From: Methanobacteriota archaeon
GTDB lineage: Archaea; JACRDV01
DNA: 13,478 nucleotides
Assembly (NCBI GenBank): GCA_024860865.1
Contig: JACRDV010000047.1
Location: 1 to 13,478 of the forward strand
Reading direction: 5' to 3'
Position numbers and translations under genes: made by a program. Positions 1 through 12,997 of this stretch are shown here, in pieces. The notes under the pieces were generated by a model. It saw only the letters and a list, made by a program, of their open reading frames with translations. It was not told where the DNA came from and ran no database searches. Numbering within the stretch: position 1 is the stretch's first letter; each line of letters starts with the position of its first letter.

Positions 1-231
1 ATCGTGATTCGAGTAAAATATTTATTCGCTAATTCATAACTAATGTTTCAATATATTTTAAAAATTATTTATTGATGATACCTTGCCCCTTTCATCTATT
101 ATGGTTAACTGGAATTAAGTTAACTTTTTTTCATTTTTTTCTGTTATGCTATTCGCCATTTTACACCTTTATTGTTTGGGATGAACGATATTTTTTATTG
201 AACAAAAAGTTTTCTTATGAGAAATTTCAGG

Positions 232-333
232 CGCCCCAGTCGGGATTCGAACCCGAGTCGCAGGCTCGACAGGCCTGCATTCTAGGCTTGAACGTGCAAT
301 CCAAGACTTCCTAGGCCTCTAGACTACTGGGGC
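232..333 (-). tRNA. tRNA-Asp (anticodon GUC) with a 29-nt non-canonical intron in the D-arm (between positions 24/25)
   Basis: Minus-strand read: acceptor GCCCCAG/CTGGGGC, discriminator G, T-arm TCGGG-TTCGAAT-CCCGA, anticodon arm CAGGC-CTGTCGA-GCCTG. The gene is 102 nt. Removing 280..308 gives a 73-nt cloverleaf with D-stem GTCT/GGAT (G10:U25). CC but no full CCA is encoded. Confidence 0.9.
280..308 (-). other. tRNA-Asp intron (BHB-bounded, 29 nt)
   Basis: Central 4-bp helix CUAG/CUAG. 3-nt bulges GAA (5' strand) and AAU (3' strand). Inner helix G(U)CUUG/CAAGC. Outer helix of only 2 bp (GC/GC). Cutting after the 2nd bulge nucleotide on each strand gives the canonical cloverleaf. Confidence 0.75.
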
Positions 334-355
334 ACAAAATAAAGTAATTTGAGAT

Positions 356-363
356 AATTTAAA
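356..363 (-). promoter_or_regulatory. TATA box (TTTAAATT) at -30..-23 of tRNA-Asp
   Basis: Same octamer at the same distance as upstream of the 5S gene. Typical archaeal TATA spacing. Confidence 0.5.
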
Positions 364-366
364 AAC

Positions 367-699
367 CTATCGTGCCTTGGCCTTAACTCCTTTCACACGG
401 GGAGGTTTTGTGGTTAAAAGGGTTTTTAAGCCAGTCGCTTCTTTAACAAAAGAATTATACCGATTAATCGCATCTTTAAACATCTCTGGATTTACCCCTT
501 CAGTCTGAGTTTCAGTTTGGCAAAAAAGTTTCTCTTCTTGCACTTCTACCACAAGTTTTCTCAAAGCTCCATAATTTTCCATGACATTTTTTCCATCATC
601 TGTCTCGTAGATCTTTGAGTTTGGAAAGTATTTTTGAAGAAGGCCGGGGATTTCTCTTAAAACGCTTTTATAACCTTTCTTAAGAGAATAACCTTTCAT
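367..699 (-). CDS. hypothetical protein (110 aa, basic C-terminus)
   Basis: Intact ORF with protein-like composition, co-oriented between the tRNA-Asp and 5S genes. I recognise no family. Confidence 0.5.
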   Translation of the reverse strand: MKGYSLKKGYKSVLREIPGLLQKYFPNSKIYETDDGKNVMENYGALRKLVVEVQEEKLFCQTETQTEGVNPEMFKDAINRYNSFVKEATGLKTLLTTKPPRVKGVKAKAR

Positions 700-724
700 G
701 CAAAGCCCCGAAATAATAATTAGT

Positions 725-878
725 GGGCTGGCAGCTATCTAGGCTTCGCGTAGGCTCTCGCACTACACTACCACCTAGAACGTGGGCGGACTTAACTTCC
801 GGGATCAGAACGAGTCCGGGTCTAGCCCCGCCACTGTGGCCGTTCAAATCAATGAACTATGGCCGCCATACCCAGCCC
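725..878 (-). rRNA. 5S rRNA, 154 nt as encoded, with a 23-nt BHB-bounded insert near the 5' end
   Basis: Minus strand contains GGCGGCCAT...AGTGGCGGGGCTAGACCCGGACTCGTTCTGATCCCGGAAGTTAAGTCCGCCCACGTTCTAGGTGG...GCCTAGATAGCTGCCAGCCC. The conserved CCCGGAAGTTAAG core is present. Terminal helix is GGGCTGG/CCAGCCC plus GGCGGC/GCTGCC. Confidence 0.92.
836..858 (-). other. putative intron or insertion within the 5S rRNA (AGTTCATTGATTTGAACGGCCAC)
   Basis: 4-bp helix GGCC(861..864)/GGCC(838..841), flanked on opposite strands by 3-nt bulges AUA and ACA. Then a 5-bp helix GUUCA/UGAAC with a 6-nt loop. Excision restores the canonical GGCGGCCAU-AGUGGCGGGG. Confidence 0.5.
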
Positions 879-900
879 ATTTAAAGGTTAAAAGTTGTTT

Positions 901-908
901 AATTTAAA
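901..908 (-). promoter_or_regulatory. TATA box (TTTAAATT) at -30..-23 of the 5S rRNA
   Basis: AT-rich upstream region. Octamer and spacing are identical to the tRNA-Asp promoter. Confidence 0.5.
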
Positions 909-940
909 TTTTTCTTTAGTCAATTTCAGTATCAAATAAG

Positions 941-1256
941 TGGTCCCGGCAGTCGGATTTTCATTCAAGAGGTATTAAGCTATTAATCCTGCTAATGTAT
1001 TTCACTCTTGTTCGCAGCTTTCTTTTGATATGTACACATTTCTTAAAATTTTAGAAATGCTTTTATGGCGATTTCATGCTTGACACGAACTCTATTTGCC
1101 TCCGGATACTTGCCCTTTCGCGTTCCTTTGCACCAATATAATATGGTTCCAATTGATCCCAGTTCTTCTTCATCATTTATGATTTGCCTCTTGAAATTTG
1201 AACCGACGACCAAGCGGTCTACAGCCGCCCGCTCTGCCAGGCTGAGCTATGCCGGG
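941..1256 (-). tRNA. tRNA-Tyr (anticodon GUA) with a 239-nt intron in the T-loop (59/60); CCA encoded
   Basis: 5' exon 1197..1256: CCCGGCA-TA-GCTC-AGCCTGGCA-GAGC-G-GGCGG-CTGTAGA-CCGCT-TGGTC-GTCGG-TTCAAA. 3' exon 941..957: T-CCGAC-TGCCGGG-A-CCA. It has C1:G72 and A73, the archaeal/eukaryal Tyr identity set. Confidence 0.9.
958..1196 (-). other. tRNA-Tyr intron, 239 nt, canonical hBHBh' motif
   Basis: Outer helix h is GUCGG/CCGAC (the T-stem). Central helix H is UUCA/UGAA (4 bp). Both bulges are AAU (3 nt). Inner helix h' is UUCAAGAGG/CCUCUUGAA (9 bp). Cutting after the 2nd bulge nucleotide yields the T-loop UUCAAAU. Confidence 0.85.
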
Positions 1257-1282
1257 ATATTAATTATATTTAGAAGAAGCGC

Positions 1283-1289
1283 TTTTAAA
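1283..1289 (-). promoter_or_regulatory. TATA-like box (TTTAAAA) about -33..-27 of tRNA-Tyr
   Basis: AT-rich element at a plausible archaeal distance from the mature 5' end at 1256. Confidence 0.4.
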
Positions 1290-1339
1290 TTATTTTTGTT
1301 AACAGTTTTTTTATAAATCAGGACTTTTGGAGGATAATT

Positions 1340-1861
1340 TTGGAACTATTTGAAGCAATTAAAAACAGGCGCAGTATAAGGGCTTTTAAGGACAAACCAG
1401 TTCCTGAAGAAAAACTGATGAAAATTTTAGAGGCAGCTCGCTGGGCTCCCTCAGCCGGCAACCTCCAGGCTTGGGAATTTATTGTGGTTAAAGAGCAGAA
1501 GCTTAAGGAACAAGTTGCAACAGCCGCTTTATCCCAATGGTTTATCGCTGAGGCACCTGTAGCTGTTGTGGTATGTGCGAACCAAAACCGCTCTGCAAGG
1601 AGATATGGTGAGAGGGGAAGAGAGCTATACTCAATACAAGATGCGACCTTAGCAACGCAAAATATGATACTAGCAGCCCATGCAGAGGGATTAAGCTCTT
1701 GCATAGTAGGGGCTTTCTATGAAGAAGAAGTTAGAAGAGTCCTAAAAATCCCTGAAGGAGTGAGGCCAATAGCAATTATACCAATTGGATACCCTGGTGA
1801 AAGGCCAGAAGCACCAGAGAGATATGAGTTAAGCAAAGTTGTCCATCGCAACGGATACTAG
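1340..1861 (+). CDS. nitroreductase-family flavoprotein (173 aa)
   Basis: N-terminus MELFEAIKNRRSIRAF, then WAPSAGNLQAW and a C-terminal IPIGYP, typical of the nitroreductase fold. TTG start with GGAGG 6 nt upstream (1329..1333). Confidence 0.85.
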   Translation: MELFEAIKNRRSIRAFKDKPVPEEKLMKILEAARWAPSAGNLQAWEFIVVKEQKLKEQVATAALSQWFIAEAPVAVVVCANQNRSARRYGERGRELYSIQDATLATQNMILAAHAEGLSSCIVGAFYEEEVRRVLKIPEGVRPIAIIPIGYPGERPEAPERYELSKVVHRNGY

Positions 1862-2819: not shown

Positions 2820-3929
2820 TTGCACCCAGCTGGTCTCGTGCGCACTGCAAAGGATGAAGGTTTTGCCTCCCTTGAAGGCAGAGTAGTTTTATCTGGCCTC
2901 TGTTATAGCTGTGGATTGTGTGTTGCAGTTTGTCCCGAAAATGTAATAGAAATGATTGTTGAAATGCCGACTTTAAAAGGGAACTGCACCCATTGTGGAG
3001 ACTGTTTTGTAGAATGTCCTAAAAGTTATCTTCCCATTAAAGAGATTCAAGAGAATTTATTTGGAGACACTCAATCCTTTGAACAATCTATTGGATATTA
3101 TCAAAAAATATTTAGCGCTCAAACCAAGCGAAAAAAAATTCTTGGTGTATCACAGTCTGGTGGAGTTGTAACAACTCTGCTAACTTCAGCTCTTGACCAG
3201 AACTTGATCAATGGAGCACTCGTAACTGCTTTGGAAGGGGAATGGGGACCTAAGCCCACAATCGCCAGAACCTATCCAAAATTGTTGGAATCTGCGCGCT
3301 CAAAATATACTGTGAATTCAATTCTAACGGCACTAAAAGAAGTTGGGGCAGAAGATGAAATTGCAGTAGTGGGATTACCTTGTCATGTTCAAGCGCTCAG
3401 AAAACTTCAAGTAAGTTCATCTTCGCCTAAGATTTTGAATCGAATAAAAATTTTAATTGGTCTTTTTTGCTCTTCTAGCTTCACTTCTTCATTTTTAGAA
3501 TATATTAGAAAGAAAAATAGCATAGAGTTATCTCAAATTAAAAAATTCGATATAAGCAAAGGCAATGTATACTTAACCGTTGGAGCCGAAAAAATTTGTT
3601 TTCCTTTGAAGGAAGTGAGCCCTTACAAACCAACAGGTTGTAGGCTTTGTTTCGATTTCACATCTGAGCTTGCAGATATTTCAGTAGGTTCAGAAGGAGC
3701 GCAAACAGATTGGTCAGCTGTTATAATAAGAACCGAAAAAGGTCTAGAATTTTTTGAGCAATGCCAAGATTGCTTTAAAATTTCTAATGAAGTCGACTTA
3801 GAGACTATAAAAAAGCGGGCAACGAAAAAGAAACTAAGTTTTCAAAAAGATGCGAATAAATTGATAAGCAAATCGCTCAACTTCCCATTAAAGACGCTTT
3901 TCGATTTTTCAAGGGAATTTAAATTTTAG
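2820..3929 (+). CDS. FrhB/FdhB-family (F420 hydrogenase/dehydrogenase beta-like) Fe-S flavoprotein with N-terminal 2x[4Fe-4S] domain
   Basis: CYSCGLCVAVCP and CTHCGDCFVECP, then SQSGGVVTTLL, GLPCHVQAL, GLFCSS and CRLCFDFTSELADISVG. TTG start with AGGAG 9 nt upstream, so the exact start is uncertain. Confidence 0.8.
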   Translation: MHPAGLVRTAKDEGFASLEGRVVLSGLCYSCGLCVAVCPENVIEMIVEMPTLKGNCTHCGDCFVECPKSYLPIKEIQENLFGDTQSFEQSIGYYQKIFSAQTKRKKILGVSQSGGVVTTLLTSALDQNLINGALVTALEGEWGPKPTIARTYPKLLESARSKYTVNSILTALKEVGAEDEIAVVGLPCHVQALRKLQVSSSSPKILNRIKILIGLFCSSSFTSSFLEYIRKKNSIELSQIKKFDISKGNVYLTVGAEKICFPLKEVSPYKPTGCRLCFDFTSELADISVGSEGAQTDWSAVIIRTEKGLEFFEQCQDCFKISNEVDLETIKKRATKKKLSFQKDANKLISKSLNFPLKTLFDFSREFKF

Positions 3930-3931
3930 GC

Positions 3932-3936
3932 AAAAA
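3932..3936 (-). terminator. oligo-T tract (TTTTT) directly after the mvhD stop; possible operon terminator
   Basis: Minus strand reads TAA-TTTTTG. Archaeal termination commonly uses T-runs. The gap to the convergent gene is only 7 nt. Confidence 0.35.
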
Positions 3937-4341
3937 TTATTTCTTTAGTGGGTTAGGGCCTATCTCAGTTATCTCTTCTGTAAACTCCTTAACAACACTC
4001 GCGAATTTTGCTCCTTCAGATGCAGAAACCCACTCTAACCTTAATCTTTCAGAGCCGAATCCAACTAATTCTAAAATTTGTTTTAAATCATTAATTCTCT
4101 TCTCAGCCTTCAGGTTTCCATCGCTGTAATGGCAATCACCCGGATGACAACCACAGACTAGAACTCCATCTGCACCTAACTCAAAGGCCTCAAGTATAAT
4201 AGCTGAGTCAACTCTGCCGCTGCACATCACTCGAATAACCCTTATTGAAGGGGGATATTGGAATCTACTAACGCCAGCTGTATCTGCCCCTCCGTATCCG
4301 CACCAGCTGCAGAGGAAGGTGACTATTTTTGGATATTTCAC
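3937..4341 (-). CDS. mvhD: MvhD-type [2Fe-2S] subunit, all-Cys version (134 aa)
   Basis: FLCSWCGYGGADTAG...RVMCSGRV...GVLVCGCHPGDCHY is the methyl-viologen-reducing hydrogenase delta subunit signature. GTG start 2 nt after the hdrA stop. Confidence 0.85.
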   Translation of the reverse strand: MKYPKIVTFLCSWCGYGGADTAGVSRFQYPPSIRVIRVMCSGRVDSAIILEAFELGADGVLVCGCHPGDCHYSDGNLKAEKRINDLKQILELVGFGSERLRLEWVSASEGAKFASVVKEFTEEITEIGPNPLKK

Positions 4342-4343
4342 AA

Positions 4344-7300
4344 TTATTCCTCTAAGAATGCCTTTACCATTGAGCGAATTTGAATCGTTTCAAATCCTTT
4401 CTGTGAAAGTGCACCAGTAGGACATGTTGGAACACAGCCACCACAACCTTTGCAGATTACCTCTTCAACGTCAGCTTTTGAAATACCAGGTTTAATTTCT
4501 TTAAGTTTTATAGCATTGAATGAACAAATTTTTACGCACTGGCCGCATCCGATACAGACATCGATGTCGACAAACGTTGTAAGAGCTTCAAGTTTAATTT
4601 TCCCTTTTGCCATCGGGACAATTGCTCTAGATGCAGCTCCGCATGCTTGTGAAACAGAATCTGTAATATCCTTTGGGCCTTGGGCACATCCGCATAAGTA
4701 AATTCCATCGGACATGAATTCAACTGGTCTTAACTTGGCATGTGCTTCTGCAAAAAAACCGTCCGGGCTTCTAGGAACTTTTAGTGTTTTAGATAATGTT
4801 TCGGCATCTTCGGTTGGAACCAGAGGAGTTGAAAGTATAATGTAATCAGCATCTAGTTCAATTTCTCGCCTTAACACGTTATCGAAAACAAGCACCTTGC
4901 CATCATTTACAGAGGGTGGTTTTTCCGGCTCGTATTTTAGGAAATTGACGCCTATTTCCTGTGTTTTTTCATAGTATTCTTCATGCTTCTTTCCAAAACT
5001 TTGGATATCTCGATAGCAGATAGAAACATCACAATTTGGATACATTTCCTTTATTGTTTGTGCATTTTTTAATGCAACTGCACAACAAACTCTAGAGCAG
5101 TAAGTCCTTCCATTTTCTTCGCGCGCCCCTACACATTGAATCATAACAATATTCTTAGGGTTCTTAAGTTCATGGTTAGCAAGCTTTTGTTCTAGTTCAA
5201 GTTGAGTCATAACATTTGGATGTTTACCATAACCAAACATACCATTCGGTTTGAATTCTTGAGAACCAGTTGCAACAACTATTGTTCCAACTTTAACTAA
5301 AATATCTTGGTCTTCTCTTGAAATTTTCACGTCGAAATTTCCGATATATCCAACTACTTCTTTAACTGTTGAAGAAGTTAAAAGCTCGATGTTATTGTGT
5401 TCCTTTACTTTTTTAATAATTGGCTCGAGAACATCCTTTGAGTATCCATTGGTCGGGAATACTTTATAGATTTCTTTTAACAATCCTCCTGGTTCGGATT
5501 TTTTATCCACCAAATAGACCTTAAATCCTTGGTCAGCTATGTTCAGTGCAGCCATCATACCTGAGATTCCAGCTCCAATTACAAGGGCAGAGGGTATAAC
5601 TGGAATTTCCTTTTCTTCTTGCGGCCTGAGTAATCTTGCTTTTGCAGCCGCCATTCTTAGCTGATCTTTTGCTCGTTCGGTTGCTTCTTGCGGCTCATGC
5701 GTGTGAACCCAAGAAGAGTGTTCTCGGATGTTTGCCATTTCAAAGAGATACGGATTTAATCCGCCTTCTTTTAGCGTTCCTCTGAACAATACTTCGTGAG
5801 TTCTTGGAGTGCAGGAGGCAACTACAACTCGATTTAGGTTATAATCATTAATTGCCTTCTTAATTTGAGTTTGAGCATCATCAGCACAAGCATACACGGT
5901 ATTAGTTGCATAAACAACATTTGGCAAAGATTTTGCGTGATTAACAACTTCAGGAATGTTAACAACGCCTGCTATGTTAGTTCCGCAATGACAGACAAAA
6001 ACTCCAATTCTCGGTTCTTCTTCTATAGTTACCAATTTTTCAAGTGGAAATATTTTCTCTTTAATTAAGGTACCTCTAGCTTCAGCAATCGGAATGACTG
6101 CTCTAGCTGCCGCCCCACTCCCCTGTGCGACAGAGTCCGGGATATCTTTAGGTCCTTGAGCAGTTCCGCAAATGTAGATGCCAGGTATTGCTGTATCCAT
6201 TGGAGCTGTTTTCAAGTCTTTTTCTTTAAAAAATCCGTTCTCATCGAGCTCAGTATTTAAAATTTGAGCTAGTTTTTCGGCATTATTTTGTTTGACTAAA
6301 CCACAAGAGAGAACAACCATATCGGCTTCAAATTTTTTGTATTCGCTTGTTACAGTATCAATATATTTTATTATGAGATTATTTGTTTTTGTATCCTCTT
6401 GTATATCGGATACTCTGGCACGAATGTAGTTTATTCCATATTCATCTCGAGCGCGCTGGACATATTCTTGAAATGCCTTTCCATATGCTCTGAGATCCAT
6501 AAAGAAAATTGTAATTTCTAAATTTCGATTGTGCTCTTTTGCAATTATTGCCTCCTTTGTTGCATACATGCAGCAGACTCTGGAGCAGTATGGATTTCCG
6601 ATTTTTTCATCTCTTGAGCCGACACATTGGATAAAAGCAATGTTTTTTGGCTCCTGACCGTCAGAAAACTTGATAACGTGACCCTGCGTGGGTCCACTTG
6701 CACTGAGTAACCTCTCAAATTCAAGCGAGGTGATTACATTTTTGTAAATTCCAAATTTATAGACAGATTTTTTAGCAGCATCAAAAACAGCATGGCCTGT
6801 TGAAACTATTATAGCTCCGACATTAATTTGGATCTCTTGTGGCTCTTGCTGGAAGTTAATCGCTTTTTTATCGCACACAAATTCACAGCTTCGACATTCG
6901 ATGCAAAAGTCCTTGTAAATTGTATAAACAGCTGGAACAGCTTGGGGAAATGGCAGCCCAATTACTTTTTGAGCTCCAATATTTGAGTCAAATTCATTCG
7001 GAATCAGCACCGGGCATTTCTCTGCGCATAAGCCGCAGCCATTGCAGGTCTTCTCATCGACATACCTTGGGTTTTTCTGGATTTTTATGCGGAAGTTGCC
7101 GACATGGCCTTTGACCTCCTTAACTTCAGCATAGGTTATTAGCTCGATGTTGGGGTGCCTTGCAACTTCTACCATTTTTGGAGCCAAAATACACATTGAG
7201 CAATCGTTTGTTGGGAAAGTCTTATCAAGCTGAGCCATTCCCCCTCCGATGCTTGGATTTTTTTCAACAAGGTAAACTTTGAGACCAGATTCAGCTAGAT

Positions 7301-7379
7301 CAAGGCTAGCTTGAATCCCAGAAACTCCTCCGCCAATGATTAATACAGCGCCAACATAATTCTTGGTCAATGTTCTCAA
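4344..7379 (-). CDS. hdrA: tandem HdrA-HdrA fusion protein (1011 aa), all-Cys
   Basis: Residues about 1-440: FAD domain (IIGGGVSG, FPTNDCSMCILAPKM, inserted CNGCGLCAEKCP/CIECRSCEFVC ferredoxin, YCSRVCC). Residues about 455-1011: second HdrA unit (VFVCHCGTNIAG N-domain, IGAGISG, YCSRVCC, C-terminal CIGCGQCVKIC/CKGCGGCVPTCP). The TTG start overlaps the upstream TGA stop (TTGA). Confidence 0.85.
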   Translation of the reverse strand: MRTLTKNYVGAVLIIGGGVSGIQASLDLAESGLKVYLVEKNPSIGGGMAQLDKTFPTNDCSMCILAPKMVEVARHPNIELITYAEVKEVKGHVGNFRIKIQKNPRYVDEKTCNGCGLCAEKCPVLIPNEFDSNIGAQKVIGLPFPQAVPAVYTIYKDFCIECRSCEFVCDKKAINFQQEPQEIQINVGAIIVSTGHAVFDAAKKSVYKFGIYKNVITSLEFERLLSASGPTQGHVIKFSDGQEPKNIAFIQCVGSRDEKIGNPYCSRVCCMYATKEAIIAKEHNRNLEITIFFMDLRAYGKAFQEYVQRARDEYGINYIRARVSDIQEDTKTNNLIIKYIDTVTSEYKKFEADMVVLSCGLVKQNNAEKLAQILNTELDENGFFKEKDLKTAPMDTAIPGIYICGTAQGPKDIPDSVAQGSGAAARAVIPIAEARGTLIKEKIFPLEKLVTIEEEPRIGVFVCHCGTNIAGVVNIPEVVNHAKSLPNVVYATNTVYACADDAQTQIKKAINDYNLNRVVVASCTPRTHEVLFRGTLKEGGLNPYLFEMANIREHSSWVHTHEPQEATERAKDQLRMAAAKARLLRPQEEKEIPVIPSALVIGAGISGMMAALNIADQGFKVYLVDKKSEPGGLLKEIYKVFPTNGYSKDVLEPIIKKVKEHNNIELLTSSTVKEVVGYIGNFDVKISREDQDILVKVGTIVVATGSQEFKPNGMFGYGKHPNVMTQLELEQKLANHELKNPKNIVMIQCVGAREENGRTYCSRVCCAVALKNAQTIKEMYPNCDVSICYRDIQSFGKKHEEYYEKTQEIGVNFLKYEPEKPPSVNDGKVLVFDNVLRREIELDADYIILSTPLVPTEDAETLSKTLKVPRSPDGFFAEAHAKLRPVEFMSDGIYLCGCAQGPKDITDSVSQACGAASRAIVPMAKGKIKLEALTTFVDIDVCIGCGQCVKICSFNAIKLKEIKPGISKADVEEVICKGCGGCVPTCPTGALSQKGFETIQIRSMVKAFLEE
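7036..7105. repeat. 70-nt block identical to 10091..10160 (copy 1, in tandem hdrA)
   Basis: Direct comparison shows cagccattgcaggtcttctcatcgacataccttgggtttttctggatttttatgcggaagttgccgacat in both paralogues. Confidence 0.95.
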
Positions 7380-8449
7380 CCTGATTTTTTAAGATTCCTT
7401 TGTGCTATTTGAAAGAGTGAACTTATTGGCAAACGGGGTGGGCACACGACATCGCAGGCTCCGCAGTTAGTACATGTTTCAGCTATGTGAAGTAAGCGAA
7501 TTAAATGAACTTGGGACTTATCTAAAGCCTTGCCTTCTTTCTTTAATATGCACAGCTTGCAAATACATAATGGGCAAGCCCTCACGCAAGCGAGACATTT
7601 AGTACATTTAGAGAAAAGCTTTCCATCCCACCAATATTTTAGTTTCTCACTATCGCTTAATTTTAAAAACTGCTCCTCAATTTCGCTTAAGATGTTTTCA
7701 GCTTGTCTTTGGATCTTATTTTTGAATTCATTGATAAAGTTAACAGCATTACCGTTTGGTTCAAATGAATATCCAGTATCTTCAAGTATTTTTTTAATGG
7801 AAGGATTCAAAACTTCAATAAAGAATTGAGAATTCGGCAATTGATAAATGAAAAGATCAGATCCACTCGAGGAAATCTTATCAAAGCAATGTTTGCAATT
7901 TGAACGAACTAGAACTCCTTTTTCTTCGAGTTCCTTAATTGAAAAATTTTTAGATTGGCCATCATCCAGTGTTAAGTGAAGGAATTCCTCATCAATTCGC
8001 TCGGACTTGATGGGTTTTTGTCCAATTATTTCTTCCAGTTTTTTAGCTGTTTTTACATTGATTGTTCCAAAACAGGATAATCCGACTATATAACCATTAA
8101 ATGAGTACCCTTTCTTCTTTAACTCATCAATTGCTTTGATATCGCAGGGCTTGGCAAACATCAAAAAATTTTTTGAATTTTTAATTGGTGTTAAATACAA
8201 ATACTTAGCCAAGTTCCCGTATAGTGATGGATAATAGCAATTAAAGGCAGAGACATTAAACTCAGATAATTTTTTCTCATCTTCAATTAGAATTGGTTTT
8301 ACTTCAAAATGAGACTTCTGTTTTTGAAAAATAACGGCACTATCAACTACTTTACTCTTTAAAGCGCTTTCAGCTAACTTTAAGATGAAATCATACAATT
8401 TTTCAGGGCGATCTAATTTTAGTTTAAGAACCTCTGGCAATAAAGCCAT
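7376..8449 (-). CDS. FrhB-like domain fused to an HdrC-like 2x[4Fe-4S] domain (357 aa)
   Basis: LAESALKSKVVDSAVI, AKPCDIKAI, GLSCFGT and CKHCFD parallel the FrhB motifs of the two neighbouring paralogues. The C-terminus has CTKCLACVRACP...CTNCGACDVVCP with the long spacer seen in HdrC-type proteins. Confidence 0.65.
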   Translation of the reverse strand: MALLPEVLKLKLDRPEKLYDFILKLAESALKSKVVDSAVIFQKQKSHFEVKPILIEDEKKLSEFNVSAFNCYYPSLYGNLAKYLYLTPIKNSKNFLMFAKPCDIKAIDELKKKGYSFNGYIVGLSCFGTINVKTAKKLEEIIGQKPIKSERIDEEFLHLTLDDGQSKNFSIKELEEKGVLVRSNCKHCFDKISSSGSDLFIYQLPNSQFFIEVLNPSIKKILEDTGYSFEPNGNAVNFINEFKNKIQRQAENILSEIEEQFLKLSDSEKLKYWWDGKLFSKCTKCLACVRACPLCICKLCILKKEGKALDKSQVHLIRLLHIAETCTNCGACDVVCPPRLPISSLFQIAQRNLKKSG

Positions 8450-8482
8450 CTCCTGCTTATGAAGCGAGTCGCAAGGAGGACC

Positions 8483-8899
8483 TTACGGCTTTCCCTCCGA
8501 GCTCACCCTCTTTAGAGGATTCTCACCAAGTTTTGAGAGTTTTTCAACTGCAGCATTGGCAGACTTCGCAAATTTGTCAGCATCCGCGGCAGAAAGGAGC
8601 AACACTTCAATCCGTTCGCCTAGGCCGATTGGAGCCAATATCTTTTTTGCAAGATCGACTTTTTGTTCCGCCAAAATGTTTCCATGTTTATAGTCGCAAT
8701 CGCCTTTTGTTCAGCCAATGACTAGAACTCCATCCATACCTTTTGTTAGAGCTCTAGCAATGTGGTTCACGCTTACTCTGCCTGCGCATGGGAATCTTAA
8801 GACTTTGAGCACAGCTGAGTATTGCTTTTTGACAGTACCAGCCAAGTCTGCTGCAGCATAACCTCATTTATAGCAAGCAAAAGCAACCATGTTGAGCAT
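8483..8899 (-). CDS. vhuD: VhuD/MvhD-like selenoprotein (138 aa) with two in-frame UGA (Sec12, Sec63)
   Basis: Reading through TGA at 8864..8866 and 8711..8713 gives MLNMVAFACYKUGYAAADLAG...GVLVIGUTKGDCDYKHGN. Both U align to Cys of the MvhD at 3937..4341 (FLCSWCGYGGADTAG; VLVCGCHPGDCHYSDGN). There are no other stops. ATG start with GGTGA 5 nt upstream. Confidence 0.85.
8711..8713 (-). other. UGA read as Sec63 of the VhuD-like protein
   Basis: Aligns to the second Cys of the CGC motif in the Cys paralogue. Confidence 0.8.
8864..8866 (-). other. UGA read as Sec12 of the VhuD-like protein
   Basis: Aligns to the Cys of the WCGYGG motif in the Cys paralogue. Confidence 0.8.
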
Positions 8900-8907
8900 T
8901 TTCTCAC

Positions 8908-10833
8908 CTATTGTGCCAAAGCATCAATTTGTGCATCAATTTGTGCATCTCTGTAGTATCGCAGAGTTATTGAGCTCGAAGGACAAACACCGGCACAAGA
9001 TCCACAGCCCTTACAAAGAATTTCGTCGACTACTGCCTTTTGGTTTTCAATTCTGATAGCATTGAAGGGGCAAGCATTTGCACAAAGTCCGCAGCCAACA
9101 CAGTTTTCTGTATCTACCAAAGCGCGAATGAGTTCAATTTCGACCTTACCTGCTATTAATGGATGTAAGGCAGTGACAGCAGCTGCTTGAGCTTGTGAAA
9201 CAGCATTAGCAATTGATTTTGGCCCAGCAGCGCACCCGCAGATAGAAACACCATCTATCCGTGTCTTAACTGGAGCCAATGCATAGTGGAACTCTTTAAA
9301 AAAGCCATATGAATCGATTTCAAGTCCAAGCATATTAGAAATTTCTCTTGCGCTCGGGTTCGAAAGCATAGCAGTTGATAGAACAACTAGATCTACTGTA
9401 TCATTGATTAATGTTTGGCGTAAAGTATCTTCGGCGTATATAGTCAGGCTCCTTGTTTCTGGGTCCTCTAGTATCTGGCCTATCTTACCCCGAACGAATT
9501 TAATGCCGAAGTCTTTTGAACGCATGAAGTATTCTTCGTTTAACTTTTCTTCTGCTCTAACATCGATATAGTAGATAGTGAGTTCGATCTCAGGATGATG
9601 TTGCTTGACGAGAGTTGCATTTTTTATTGCTACCATACAGCAAACAGTGGAGCAGTAAGGTTGAGAACGCAGATCTCTTGATCCGACGCACTGTATGAAG
9701 GCTATTTTCTTCACTTTTTTGCCGTCGGAAATCCTTACCAGTTCCCCTTCAGTCGGTCCGTTTGGGCTGAGAAGTCTTTCAAGTTCAAACTCTGTAATCA
9801 CATTGGGATAAGTGCCATATCCATAGTAACTTGGCTTATAAACCTCGAGTCCAGTAGCCACGATAATTGTTCCAATCTCGAGTTCGATCTCTTGTGGTTT
9901 TTGATTGAAGTCAATTGACTTTTTCTCGCAAACAAGTTCGCAACTTCGGCACTCTGTGCAAAATTCCTTTTCAATCGCATAGATTGCTGGAACTGCTTGA
10001 GAGAAAGGTAACCCAATTACCTTCCTTGCCCCTAGATTCGCATCGAATTCGTTTGGAATCAGCACTGGGCATTTCTCTGAACAAAGTCCACAGCCATTGC
10101 AGGTCTTCTCATCGACATACCTTGGGTTTTTCTGGATTTTTATGCGGAAGTTGCCGACATAACCGGTGATCTCTTTTACCTCGGCGTTTGTAATTAACTG
10201 AACATTTGGATGCTTTGACGTCTCCACCATTTTTGGAGCTAGAATTCACATTGCACAATCGTCAGTTGGAAAGATCCTGTCGTATCCTGCCATTCTTCCG
10301 CCTATGCTGGTTTTTTTCTCCACGAGGTAAACTTTGAATCCTCGGTTGGCAATATCGATGGCAGCTGTCATTCCAGCTATTCCTCCGCCGATAATTAGTG
10401 CTGTAGGTGTTACTGGGACTTCCTTTATTGGCACCTCTTCTAAATTTTTGGCCCTAGCGATCCCGGCCTTGACCAAAGAAATTGCTTTATCAGTTGCTTC
10501 CTTCGGTGTCTCTCTGTGCACAAATGAACAATGTTCCCGCAAGTTTACCATTTCAAAGAAATATTGGCTCAACCCAGCGCGCTTGAGAGCATTGCGGAAT
10601 GTTATTTCGTGCATTTTAGGGGTACAAGAAGCAACCACAACTCGATTTAGTCCCTGTTCCTTGATGTCTTTGATAATACCGTCCTGAGAAGGATCTGCGC
10701 ACATAAAGGTCTCACTTCTAGCCACCGTTACACTTGGAATCGATTTAACTGAGTTCATAACTTGCTCGACGTTCACTATACTGCCAATGTTAACTCCTCA
10801 TTTGCAGATGTAAACTCCCACTTTGGGTTCCAT
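8908..10833 (-). CDS. hdrA: HdrA (heterodisulfide reductase subunit A-type FAD/Fe-S protein), selenoprotein with two in-frame UGA (Sec12, Sec196), 641 aa
   Basis: Joins track ORFs 8908..10230 and 10246..10776 with 10777..10833. MEPKVGVYICKUGVNIGS aligns to EPRIGVFVCHCGTNIAG, and FPTDDCAMUILAPKMVE aligns to FPTNDCSMCILAPKMVE of the Cys paralogue. Full HdrA architecture: N-domain, FAD domain, inserted ferredoxin, C-terminal ferredoxin. ATG preceded by GGAGGTGGAGA. Confidence 0.88.
10091..10160. repeat. 70-nt block identical to 7036..7105 (copy 2, in Sec-hdrA)
   Basis: Direct comparison. Flanking sequence is diverged at most synonymous sites. Confidence 0.95.
10246..10248 (-). other. UGA read as Sec196 of HdrA
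   Basis: Aligns to the last Cys of DCSMC in the Cys paralogue. Confidence 0.85.
10798..10800 (-). other. UGA read as Sec12 of HdrA
   Basis: Aligns to the second Cys of the CHCG motif in the N-terminal Fe-S domain of the Cys paralogue. Confidence 0.8.
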
Positions 10834-10843
10834 TCTCCACCTC

Positions 10844-11896
10844 CTATTTGCTTGCCTTCTTCTTCGAAGCTGTTTTGTTGAGTTCATCTAAATTGACTTG
10901 ATCTGAGACTTCAATTAAGCCAGCTTTCTTAACTTCGTTGATTAATTCTGCACCCTTTTTAGAGCGTATGACTAAAGTCGACCAACGGTCTGGTGAACCC
11001 ACACTTCCAACTGATACATCAGCTAACTCTGCTGTAAAATCGGTGCACTTATGACAAGCATTTACTACACAGTCCATAAATTCTCTAACTTTTTTCTCAT
11101 GTACTCCTTCCTTTGTAGCGAAAATAAATTTGCCTTTTGTAATATTGGCTTTGATAAGTTTGTCAAAATCAATGTTAAACAAGTTTTTGACCTTAGTTCG
11201 TAATTTTTCATAAACAAAATTTTCATAACAGAATAGACCGATTGTTGTGATATCAATTCCATCGAACTTCTTGAAGAAATTTAACTGCAAATTTCTTGAA
11301 CCGCTAATTTGGCAACCCGTTCCAACCAGTATCATTTTTTTAAGTTTTTGTTCCATGATTGCTTTTCCAAGCACTTTGACCACCGGAGAGTTTGTGTATT
11401 TCGAGCCAGCAGAAGGAAGAAGCTGCTCCAAAGAAGTTGCTACATATGATTTTGGTCGCCAAGGTTCAACCCCATCTTTGCCAGTAACTATGGCTCCATC
11501 TACTAGTTTATTTTGAAGCGCATGAGCCAAAATCGTGGTTACGATACCGCCATCTTGTGAAATGTTCCCAATTTCAGAGCGCGTAGTTCGTGCGGCAGCA
11601 ATTTTAATGAATTTTCCGACCTGCTCACTTTTTGTACCTTCTAAGAAATTTTTCTCGATAGTATCGGTTGGGGTCTTTACCTTTGGGCAATTCTCGTAAC
11701 ACATACCATCGATTTCGCACTGAATTGCACCCACTTTAATTGTGCAATCTTTTACTAAGATTGGGTCATCGTAATTGATATCAATTCTATTACAAAGAGC
11801 AGAGCAGGTTCCACATCTGGAGCAAAGATTTTGGTCAATTATTTTTTTCTTTAACTCTTCATATCCAAGACTTTTTTTCATCAATGGAACTAGCAA
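10844..11896 (-). CDS. FrhB/FdhB-family Fe-S flavoprotein (about 345-350 aa)
   Basis: CSRCGTCSALC, SQDGGIVTTILAHAL, GTGCQISG, GLFCYEN and CHKCTDFTAELADVSVGS. The track start is TTG at 11896, abutting the upstream stop. An ATG at 11881 (MKKSLGY) is an equally plausible start. Confidence 0.8.
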   Translation of the reverse strand: MLVPLMKKSLGYEELKKKIIDQNLCSRCGTCSALCNRIDINYDDPILVKDCTIKVGAIQCEIDGMCYENCPKVKTPTDTIEKNFLEGTKSEQVGKFIKIAAARTTRSEIGNISQDGGIVTTILAHALQNKLVDGAIVTGKDGVEPWRPKSYVATSLEQLLPSAGSKYTNSPVVKVLGKAIMEQKLKKMILVGTGCQISGSRNLQLNFFKKFDGIDITTIGLFCYENFVYEKLRTKVKNLFNIDFDKLIKANITKGKFIFATKEGVHEKKVREFMDCVVNACHKCTDFTAELADVSVGSVGSPDRWSTLVIRSKKGAELINEVKKAGLIEVSDQVNLDELNKTASKKKASK

Positions 11897-12997
11897 TTAC
11901 CTCAACCCCTCAAAGTGGCTTGAAATAAAGCTGGTTAGATCTTGGACCTTTAAATTAGTATTTTTCATGGCTTCTTCGCTCAAAAGGCAGTTTAAGTGAA
12001 TGTTACACTTTGGACAAGGCACTATCAGGCTTTCGACTTTGGCTTTTCTAGCGTCGTTAATTTTTTGAGTTCTAATCAGCTTTGAATTTTCATCGCAGTT
12101 CATCCAAGCGCTCACACCGCAACACAATGAGTTTTCCCTCCTTCTCATTATTTCAGTGAAGTTAGTTCCTGCTATTGCTTTTATAATTTCTCTTGGAGAA
12201 TCATATACATTCAAGTGCCGGCCAAGTCTGCAAGAGTCATGATAACCAATTTTTATTTCAGATGGCTTAAACCGAAGATTTGGGAAATGTTTCTCTAGAA
12301 ACTCGGATATAAACAAGACTTCAATATTAAAATCAAATTTTTCATAATCAATTTTCAGGGTTCTATAGCATTCTGCGCAAGTCGTTATAATTTTTTTAAC
12401 TCCGCTAGCTTTTATCATTTCAATATTCTGTTTAGCAAGATTTTCAAATATTTGATATTCCCCGCGCCAAAAAGCATCATGACCACAGCATTTTGTTCTT
12501 AAAAGAACAGGTTCAATTCCAAGTTTGTTTAAAATTGAGAGGGCGTCTTGCACAATCTTCTTTCCATCAAAACCAATGTCTTTAAAAAATATATCTAAAT
12601 AAGGCAAACATCCGATAAAATATCCTATATCATTATTTTCGCTAGTTTTGTAACCCGAAGGCAGCCATATTTTCAATCGTGGCCAAATTTTATTTGACAC
12701 CATTATTTTATCTAAAAAATGGAAAAATCCTTTATGAGCGAAACAAAAAGGGTCTTCTTTTAGACCAGCTCGTTCTTCACGAACAGCCTCGGGTAAGTTG
12801 ATCTGCATTGGACAATTGGTATAGCAAGCTGCACAAGTTAAACACTGTTTTAAAAAATCTTTCGATATAGTATAACCTATGCTCGTGCCGTATACTGCTA
12901 TCCTAGGCGAAAATAATTTGAGGTCAGTAAAAAGCGGGCAGTTTCCTGAACAAACTCCGCACTGAGCGCATGTATTTGGGTTATATTTAATTGTCAT
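11897..12997 (-). CDS. hdrD: HdrD-like protein: HdrC-type 2x[4Fe-4S] domain fused to two CCG (HdrB-type) cysteine-rich domains (366 aa)
   Basis: CAQCGVCSGNCP...CLTCAACYTNCP, then the CCG motifs KCCGHD and LCCGVS with CAEC/CPKC. First gene of the operon, with no SD, so probably leaderless. Confidence 0.8.
   Translation of the reverse strand: MTIKYNPNTCAQCGVCSGNCPLFTDLKLFSPRIAVYGTSIGYTISKDFLKQCLTCAACYTNCPMQINLPEAVREERAGLKEDPFCFAHKGFFHFLDKIMVSNKIWPRLKIWLPSGYKTSENNDIGYFIGCLPYLDIFFKDIGFDGKKIVQDALSILNKLGIEPVLLRTKCCGHDAFWRGEYQIFENLAKQNIEMIKASGVKKIITTCAECYRTLKIDYEKFDFNIEVLFISEFLEKHFPNLRFKPSEIKIGYHDSCRLGRHLNVYDSPREIIKAIAGTNFTEIMRRRENSLCCGVSAWMNCDENSKLIRTQKINDARKAKVESLIVPCPKCNIHLNCLLSEEAMKNTNLKVQDLTSFISSHFEGLR

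Follow-up and report, generated by a model that had tools for sequence, protein, structure and literature searches.

A 239-nt bulge-helix-bulge intron at position 59/60 of an archaeal tRNA-Tyr(GUA) gene

The stretch analysed here, contig JACRDV010000047.1 of a Methanobacteriota archaeon (assembly GCA_024860865.1), is referred to at its full length of 13,478 nucleotides (nt) as the window, and its main subject is a transfer RNA (tRNA) gene, tRNA-Tyr(GUA), lying on the minus strand and read from 1256 to 941. Very probably, this is a working gene interrupted by one protein-spliced bulge-helix-bulge (BHB) intron, most likely carried on a single precursor, whose interior has no detectable function. 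The intron is 239 nt long and separates tRNA positions 59 and 60 within the T-loop, and its length, about twice the documented upper length, is its only unusual feature. The initial annotation had placed the gene at 941-1256, which proved exact, and had described a single 239-nt intron at 59/60 framed by an hBHBh' motif with its T stem, 4- and 9-base-pair (bp) helices and AAU bulges, all of which was borne out by the pair list and by the exon and intron coordinates. The parts of the gene are the following:

1256..1197, minus strand: 5' exon of tRNA-Tyr(GUA), tRNA positions 1-59, 60 nt (the 5' strand of the acceptor stem, the D and anticodon arms, the variable loop, the 5' strand of the T stem and U54-A59 of the T-loop)
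1196..958, minus strand: BHB-type intron between tRNA positions 59/60, 239 nt
957..941, minus strand: 3' exon, 17 nt including the encoded CCA (U60, the 3' strands of the T stem, CCGAC, and of the acceptor stem, UGCCGGG, then the discriminator A73 and the CCA)
1196..1202, minus strand: 5' splice region, in which UUCA (T-loop 54-57) supplies the 5' strand of the central helix of 4 bp and the bulge A58 A59 / U comes next, from the pair list
957..963, minus strand: 3' splice region, in which UGAA supplies the 3' strand of the central helix and the bulge A A / U60 comes next, from the pair list
1187..1195, minus strand: 5' arm of the outer (h') BHB helix, UUCAAGAGG, an inverted repeat with 964-972, 9/9 complementary
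964..972, minus strand: 3' arm of the outer (h') BHB helix, CCUCUUGAA, an inverted repeat with 1187..1195, from the pair list
1283..1290, minus strand: TATA-like box ATTTAAAA, presumed promoter of the whole pre-tRNA, at -34 to -27 from tRNA position 1

The cloverleaf and the BHB together comprised 34 pairs, all of them standard, with a single G-U pair in the anticodon stem. In particular, an acceptor stem of 7 bp, a D stem of 4 bp, an anticodon stem of 5 bp and a T stem of 5 bp (GUCGG/CCGAC) were formed. Because the gene has one extra D-loop nucleotide, its residue 60 corresponds to tRNA position 59. The junction is laid out as 5 bp, AAU, 4 bp (UUCA/UGAA), AAU and 9 bp (UUCAAGAGG/CCUCUUGAA), where the 4-bp helix pairs U54-A57 of the T-loop with the UGAA of the intron and all the BHB pairs are Watson-Crick. 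It is thus the strict hBHBh' motif of the literature, in which a 4-bp helix lies between two 3-nt bulges (PMC4090602), and it is geometrically equivalent to the canonical intron at 37/38, with the T arm taking the place of the anticodon arm.

Several independent results agreed with this anatomy. An inverted-repeat search of the window recovered both the 9-bp helix and the acceptor stem, and the pattern of the 3' exon occurred once in the window, against 0.01 occurrences expected from shuffles. Moreover, ARAGORN reported no tRNA in the window or in the unspliced gene, and a tRNA-Tyr(gta) of 77 nt after the 239 nt had been removed in silico, while the Rfam tRNA model aligned only to the 5' exon, below threshold (17.8 bits). 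The G+C content was 66% in the exons, 35% in the intron and 39% in the window. Furthermore, the gene has C1-G72 and A73, which we take to agree with the identity of archaeal tRNA-Tyr. A circularly permuted gene was ruled out, as the exons stand in normal order on the minus strand, and so was an integrated element with duplicated attachment (att) sites, as no segment of the tRNA recurs beside the insertion, on one side or the other.

The intron exceeds the documented length range of archaeal tRNA introns, which one review puts at 11-129 nt (medians 12-25 nt; PMC4090602) and another at 'less than 100 nt' (PMC4033280). Among the long cases is the tRNA-Asp intron of A. pernix, with 121 nt (PMC4307357). 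In the intron-richest genomes reported, those of Atabeyarchaeia, 92-95% of the tRNA genes are interrupted (PMC11291895), and the largest single intron in the excerpts of its Supplementary Data 4 has ~116 nt. The statement in the initial annotation that the long archaeal examples have around 100-120 nt agrees with the published range, the length is exceptional as it had claimed, and 59/60 does appear on the published list of non-canonical intron sites (PMC4090602). A limited search of the open-access literature found no report of a BHB tRNA intron longer than 200 nt, and no record is claimed on that basis.

The evidence that the gene is maintained came from a related locus (L001), Logan contig ERR3478701, whose nitroreductase is 98% identical to that of the window and which was aligned with it over the whole locus. 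The same tRNA-Tyr gene was found there with a homologous intron of 253 nt. All 77 exon nucleotides were identical (60/60 and 17/17), and so were the BHB-forming intron nucleotides, including both 9-bp arms. In the interior of the intron, 14 substitutions were counted along with 7 indel events, which makes indels denser there than anywhere else in the locus, and the substitution identity of the intron (94%) was that of the intergenic segments 848-940 and 2590-2819 (94-95%). At a divergence of ~6%, the probability that 77 exon sites remain unchanged is about 0.94^77 = 0.009. Since the exons are identical while the intron drifts like intergenic DNA, the exons are under purifying selection and the intron, except for its ends, is not visibly so. 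This pattern of conserved exons and BHB with a variable interior is based on one close relative, L001.

The same comparison bears on whether the gene has been disrupted and is no longer spliced, that is, whether a small mobile or foreign segment with 9-bp terminal inverted repeats, resembling a miniature inverted-repeat transposable element (MITE), was inserted into the T-loop. Its size of 239-253 bp, its AT-richness, the 9-bp terminal inverted repeats and the fast indel evolution would fit such a segment. Likewise, one sense frame, an open reading frame (ORF) of 56 aa (1213..1043, minus strand, starting in the 5' exon), has gene-like codon usage, with 12.4 bits over 37 codons, a score reached by 1.4% of non-coding windows, and may be a relic of the (foreign) coding DNA from which the intron was built. 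However, a decaying pseudogene is argued against by exons that are 77/77 identical between lineages differing at ~6% of neutral sites, in the intron and in intergenic DNA alike. Moreover, the junction is a complete BHB, which required an extra UGAA at the 3' end of the intron and is not a simple target-site duplication, the locus lies at the syntenic position of tRNA-Tyr, and no second copy of the segment was found in the window, in the fetched loci or in viral, plasmid and metagenome collections. A disrupted, unspliced gene is therefore regarded as very unlikely. A mobile origin as such is compatible with a spliced BHB intron, and only the absence of splicing is truly a rival.

A second related locus (L002; ENA ERZ4756919), whose nitroreductase and DUF5611 proteins are both 72% identical to those of the window, holds the orthologous tRNA-Tyr gene at 1255-1368 (minus strand), syntenic and in divergent orientation to the nitroreductase gene. 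There is no intron at 59/60, the T arm being uninterrupted, and the gene has instead an insertion of 19 nt in the D loop and another of ~18 nt after G37 (37/38). Thus, one and the same tRNA-Tyr gene has swapped its set of introns within a small clade, which suggests that tRNA introns turn over quickly. As the L002 orthologue is not broken at 59/60, the arrangement in the window is lineage-specific and probably recent, not a relic. The intron was probably gained in the lineage of the window and L001, a loss in L002 being, with three loci, the less likely alternative. No tRNA-Tyr gene adjoins the nitroreductase gene in five further contigs (L003, L004 and L086-L088), whose nitroreductases are 62-65% identical. 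As for the surroundings in L002, ~0.9 kb of AT-rich DNA without a called gene (~369-1255) lies downstream of its tRNA-Tyr, and the 5S ribosomal RNA (rRNA) and DUF5611 genes form a block (2025-2524) beyond the nitroreductase gene, in the opposite orientation to that of the window.

The processing expected of an interrupted but working gene can be outlined as follows. A single precursor of ~320 nt would be transcribed from the TATA-like box ATTTAAAA upstream of the 5' exon; boxes of the TTTAAA type also precede the tRNA-Asp and 5S genes of the window, by reading of the sequence. In this precursor, the T stem, the 4-bp UUCA/UGAA helix and the 9-bp helix inside the intron would frame the two 3-nt AAU bulges, and, by the canonical BHB rule, EndA would cut after the second nucleotide of each bulge (AA/U). 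A ligase of the RtcB type would then join A59 to U60, giving a tRNA of 77 nt with the T-loop UUCAAAU and a spliced exon junction reading ...GGUUCAAA / UCCGAC.... The intron would be released, probably as a circle, in which case its back-splice junction would read ...UGAAAA / UUUCAAGAGG..., and only the ~25 intron nucleotides that build the BHB would be constrained, with the remainder presumably drifting like intergenic DNA. As a strict motif, the junction should be acceptable to every archaeal type of EndA at any position, and recognition of the BHB is independent of position (PMC4090602). Neither an EndA gene nor an RtcB gene lies within the 13.5-kb window.

A different reading had been suggested in the initial annotation, in which the gene resembles the halves of a split tRNA kept in cis and may be an intermediate between intron-containing and split tRNA genes. 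On that reading, each exon would be transcribed from its own promoter and the two would be joined in trans through the 9-bp helix, as a step towards split genes. The 9-bp helix beside the BHB does resemble the leader/trailer duplex of split tRNAs (PMC4090602), and in Thermofilum pendens the gene of tRNA-Tyr(GUA) is permuted, with the rearrangement exactly at 59/60 (PMC3218864). Moreover, the AT-rich intron holds one TATA-like string, TTTTAAGA at 1048, the only one inside it. However, this string reads TTTTCAGG in L001, and a TATA-like box at the usual distance was found upstream of the 5' exon only (ATTTAAAA). A terminator for the 5' half was also sought, and no T run longer than 4 was present on the RNA-sense strand of the intron. 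Furthermore, both exons are found on one strand in normal order with 239 nt between them, so that read-through is the simplest reading, and the L002 orthologue is unbroken at 59/60. With no run of five T, no conserved internal promoter and an uninterrupted orthologue, the proposal was not upheld at the level of the sequence, and transcription in two halves is considered highly improbable. The T. pendens gene shows that 59/60 of tRNA-Tyr tolerates BHB-mediated rearrangement, which does not make the present gene an intermediate.

The interior of the intron contains two features that were considered separately from the splice motif:

1176..1063, minus strand: ORF of 37 codons, MMKKNWDQLEPYYIGAKERERASIRRQIEFVSSMKSP, by translation; probably fortuitous
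1037..1059, minus strand, mid-intron: near-perfect palindrome (hairpin) with 11-nt arms CATTTCTTAAA/TTTTAGAAATG, an inverted repeat

A permissive Rfam scan of window positions 1-1400 (E<=10) yielded neither a group I nor a group II intron, nor any credible C/D RNA or other family in the intron. An intron-borne box C/D small RNA was rejected, as its AUGAUGA reads AAUAAUGA in L001 and the Rfam C/D match, with 16 bits and E=3.8, is noise; no CUGA D box was found by reading the intron sequence. The fold of the intron is weak (z = -1.9 against mononucleotide shuffles). The palindrome is kept in L001, where one U-A pair has become U-G and 1 nt is inserted. The stop codon of the 56-aa frame falls within the palindrome, and the sequence after it on the plus strand, CTTTTAT, resembles a terminator.

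A self-splicing group I or group II intron would match in its size of ~240 nt alone, group I introns in bacterial tRNA genes being of similar size. Apart from the absence of any Intron_gpI or group II match in the Rfam scan, the insertion lies in the T-loop, not in the anticodon loop, its flanks build a perfect BHB, and a G+C content of 35% together with the weak fold makes a ribozyme core unlikely. The chance of such an intron is practically negligible.

A possible function was also sought in the ORFs, on the supposition that a micro-protein of 37-38 aa is translated, either from the precursor or from the intron once it has been excised and possibly circularised. The 37-codon ORF is the only one open in both the window and L001, where the same stop codon is kept. 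Both L001 indels inside it, of 3 and 9 nt, preserve the frame, and the five outside it are of 1, 1, 3, 1 and 2 nt, which gives a weak hint of coding constraint, expected about once in nine by chance. In addition, two of its three clean codon substitutions are synonymous against none in the opposite-strand frame, by reading of the alignment, and its first ATG is preceded by GAGG at 10 nt, several genes of the window having GGAG or GAGG upstream. However, this putative Shine-Dalgarno sequence lies inside the 9-bp BHB helix, and its spacing is 13 nt in L001. Dinucleotide shuffles gave an ORF of at least 37 codons starting with ATG in 14% of cases when the sense strand was considered and in 31% for either strand, and the codon-usage score of the ORF (-0.6) was far from that of equal-length pieces of the window's genes (13.4 +/- 5.3), being matched by ~20% of non-coding windows. 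Substitution identity with L001 was not clearly higher in the ORF part (95.5%) than in the rest of the intron (93.1%). Moreover, a HMMER search of the 37-aa peptide against 1.84 billion representative proteins returned two matches, both low-complexity repeat proteins that were rejected as homologues, no match was found in Pfam or PHROGs, and an exact look-up of the product found no gene on record. A translated micro-protein is thus quite unlikely.

Two other frames were rejected as genes: a plus-strand ORF of 83 aa (1065..1316), which is closed in L001 and whose three substitutions are all non-synonymous, and the 56-aa sense ORF as a present-day gene, as the 9-nt insertion of L001 brings two stops into it. 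Furthermore, neither the intron nor the peptide was found in IMG/VR viral contigs (peptide patterns and an 18-mer), in phage and plasmid collections or in 84 GTDB loci holding nitroreductase homologues, and the JGI metagenomes gave one chance match (L085), PYYIGAKERE inside an unrelated protein of 350 aa. As no similar intron was found in another tRNA gene, there is no evidence of transposition between tRNA genes. Overall, that the intron either encodes a peptide of 37-38 aa, made from the excised and possibly circular intron, or is freshly captured mobile or coding DNA is an unlikely proposition, although it would make the case considerably more interesting if either were confirmed: the former would be the first BHB intron of a tRNA gene to encode a protein, and the latter would show how BHB introns are born. 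As far as its sequence goes, the extra length of the intron shows no sign of function.

Some points weigh against the reading of a working gene with a spliced, functionless intron. In the minimum-energy fold of the precursor predicted by ViennaRNA, the AU-rich central helix of 4 bp is left open, and enforcing the cloverleaf and the BHB costs ~5 kcal/mol (-81.2 vs. -86.1 kcal/mol at the minimum), although the T stem and the 9-bp helix are contained in that fold. A second intact tRNA-Tyr gene may exist outside the 13.5-kb window. Moreover, the carriers of the intron are two sequences, ~94% identical, by which constraint within the intron is poorly resolved, and the in-frame nature of both indels in the 37-codon ORF counts in the same direction.

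Beyond this gene, the mechanism is a textbook one, as the archaeal endonuclease recognises a BHB wherever it is placed. The present intron would roughly double the maximum length documented for archaeal tRNA introns, which suggests that the splicing machinery sets no tight length limit. Furthermore, both ARAGORN and the Rfam tRNA model miss the gene, so that such genomes would appear to lack tRNA-Tyr, which affects the annotation of metagenome-assembled genomes and the measures of completeness based on their tRNA complement. Finally, the three orthologous loci, two with the long intron at 59/60 and the third with two short introns elsewhere, provide a small natural example of rapid intron turnover that bears on models of intron gain.

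The tRNA-Tyr gene belongs to a small cluster of RNA genes on the minus strand, with these neighbours:

847..727, minus strand: 5S rRNA, 64.5 bits
699..367, minus strand: DUF5611 ORF
336..~232, minus strand: tRNA-Asp(GUC), of which Rfam aligns model positions 10-63 only

The 5S gene lies directly downstream of tRNA-Tyr, is 100% identical in L001 and stands apart from any 16S or 23S gene within the window. The tRNA-Asp(GUC) gene has an insertion of ~29 nt in its D arm (~283-311), and since ARAGORN accepts any removal of 27-31 nt, several splice sites fit. The insertion is most plausibly a BHB-type intron at 24/25, with CUAG/CUAG as the central helix and the bulges GAA and AAU; after removal at this site, the D stem is GUCU/GGAU and G18G19 lie in the loop. 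Thus, tRNA-Tyr is not the only gene of the window with a non-canonical interruption.

Upstream of tRNA-Tyr, the nitroreductase gene is divergently oriented and is followed by the gene of a KaiC-like ATPase, for whose product an exact look-up found nothing on record, and by a large cluster of the Hdr/MvhD/FrhB type. This dense cluster (2820-12997) encodes an HdrA-like protein of 1011 aa with two FAD/NAD domains, MvhD, three copies of an FrhB-like protein, and ferredoxin-domain and HdrB/CCG-domain proteins. An ORF of 176 aa within it (10246-10776, minus strand) has only an N-terminal Rossmann FAD/NAD-binding motif, placed at its C-terminal end (residues 126-169), and may be a truncated or split gene of the HdrA type or have a mis-called start.

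The archaeal origin of the window is supported by the best matches of the neighbouring proteins, which are archaeal, and by the Hdr/Mvh/Frh gene content. Among the relatives of the nitroreductase, one is 98% identical, one 72% and the others at most 65% (Bathyarchaeia, Thermoproteota, Methanomethylicota and Njordarchaeales). In 5.8 billion proteins, no relative above 56% was found for the HdrA-like protein of 1011 aa, the names of its matches mixing Asgard and Bathyarchaeia, and DUF5611 was represented by only two clusters. These protein comparisons indicate that the host belongs to a deeply branching, poorly sampled archaeal lineage without close sequenced relatives.

Among the known systems, the closest likeness was found with the non-canonical BHB tRNA introns of archaea (Thermoproteales, Nitrososphaerota and Atabeyarchaeia/Freyarchaeia), with which the present intron shares the strict BHB and the listed site 59/60. 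As in these intron-rich lineages, neighbouring and orthologous tRNA genes also carry non-canonical introns, and orthologues differ in their set of introns. It differs from them in its length, 239 nt here and 253 nt in L001 compared with 11-129 nt. Introns of comparable size are known from archaeal rRNA genes, where the BHB introns of the Thermoproteales 16S and 23S genes have hundreds of nt and are excised by the same endonuclease. The long ones usually encode LAGLIDADG homing endonucleases, while some have no ORF. Unlike these, the present intron sits in a tRNA gene, and a Pfam search found no ORF of the LAGLIDADG type in it. The intron of the tRNA-Trp of Euryarchaeota is likewise a longer-than-usual BHB intron in a tRNA gene; however, it has a median of 65 nt, lies at 37/38 and holds a conserved C/D guide RNA (PMC4090602), with no such RNA found here.

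The split tRNA genes of Nanoarchaeum equitans, Caldivirga and Staphylothermus resemble the present gene in that, until EndA cleaves, the halves are kept together by a helix next to the BHB (PMC4090602). Nevertheless, their halves are separate transcription units with their own promoters and are often far apart, whereas the exons here are 239 nt apart on one strand, without a terminator-like T run or a conserved internal promoter. With the permuted tRNA-Tyr(GUA) of T. pendens, the gene shares the tRNA itself and the 59/60 junction formed through a BHB (PMC3218864), and CCA is encoded in both the permuted genes of T. pendens and the present one. In the permuted tRNAs (tRNA-Tyr(GUA) and tRNA-iMet of T. 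pendens, and those of Cyanidioschyzon merolae), the 3' half comes first, followed by a linker of 1-7 nt, while here the exons are in normal order with an intron between them. Taken together, at the level of its sequence the intron does not have the defining features of split, permuted, group I or C/D-bearing tRNA genes and has those of an archaeal BHB tRNA intron.

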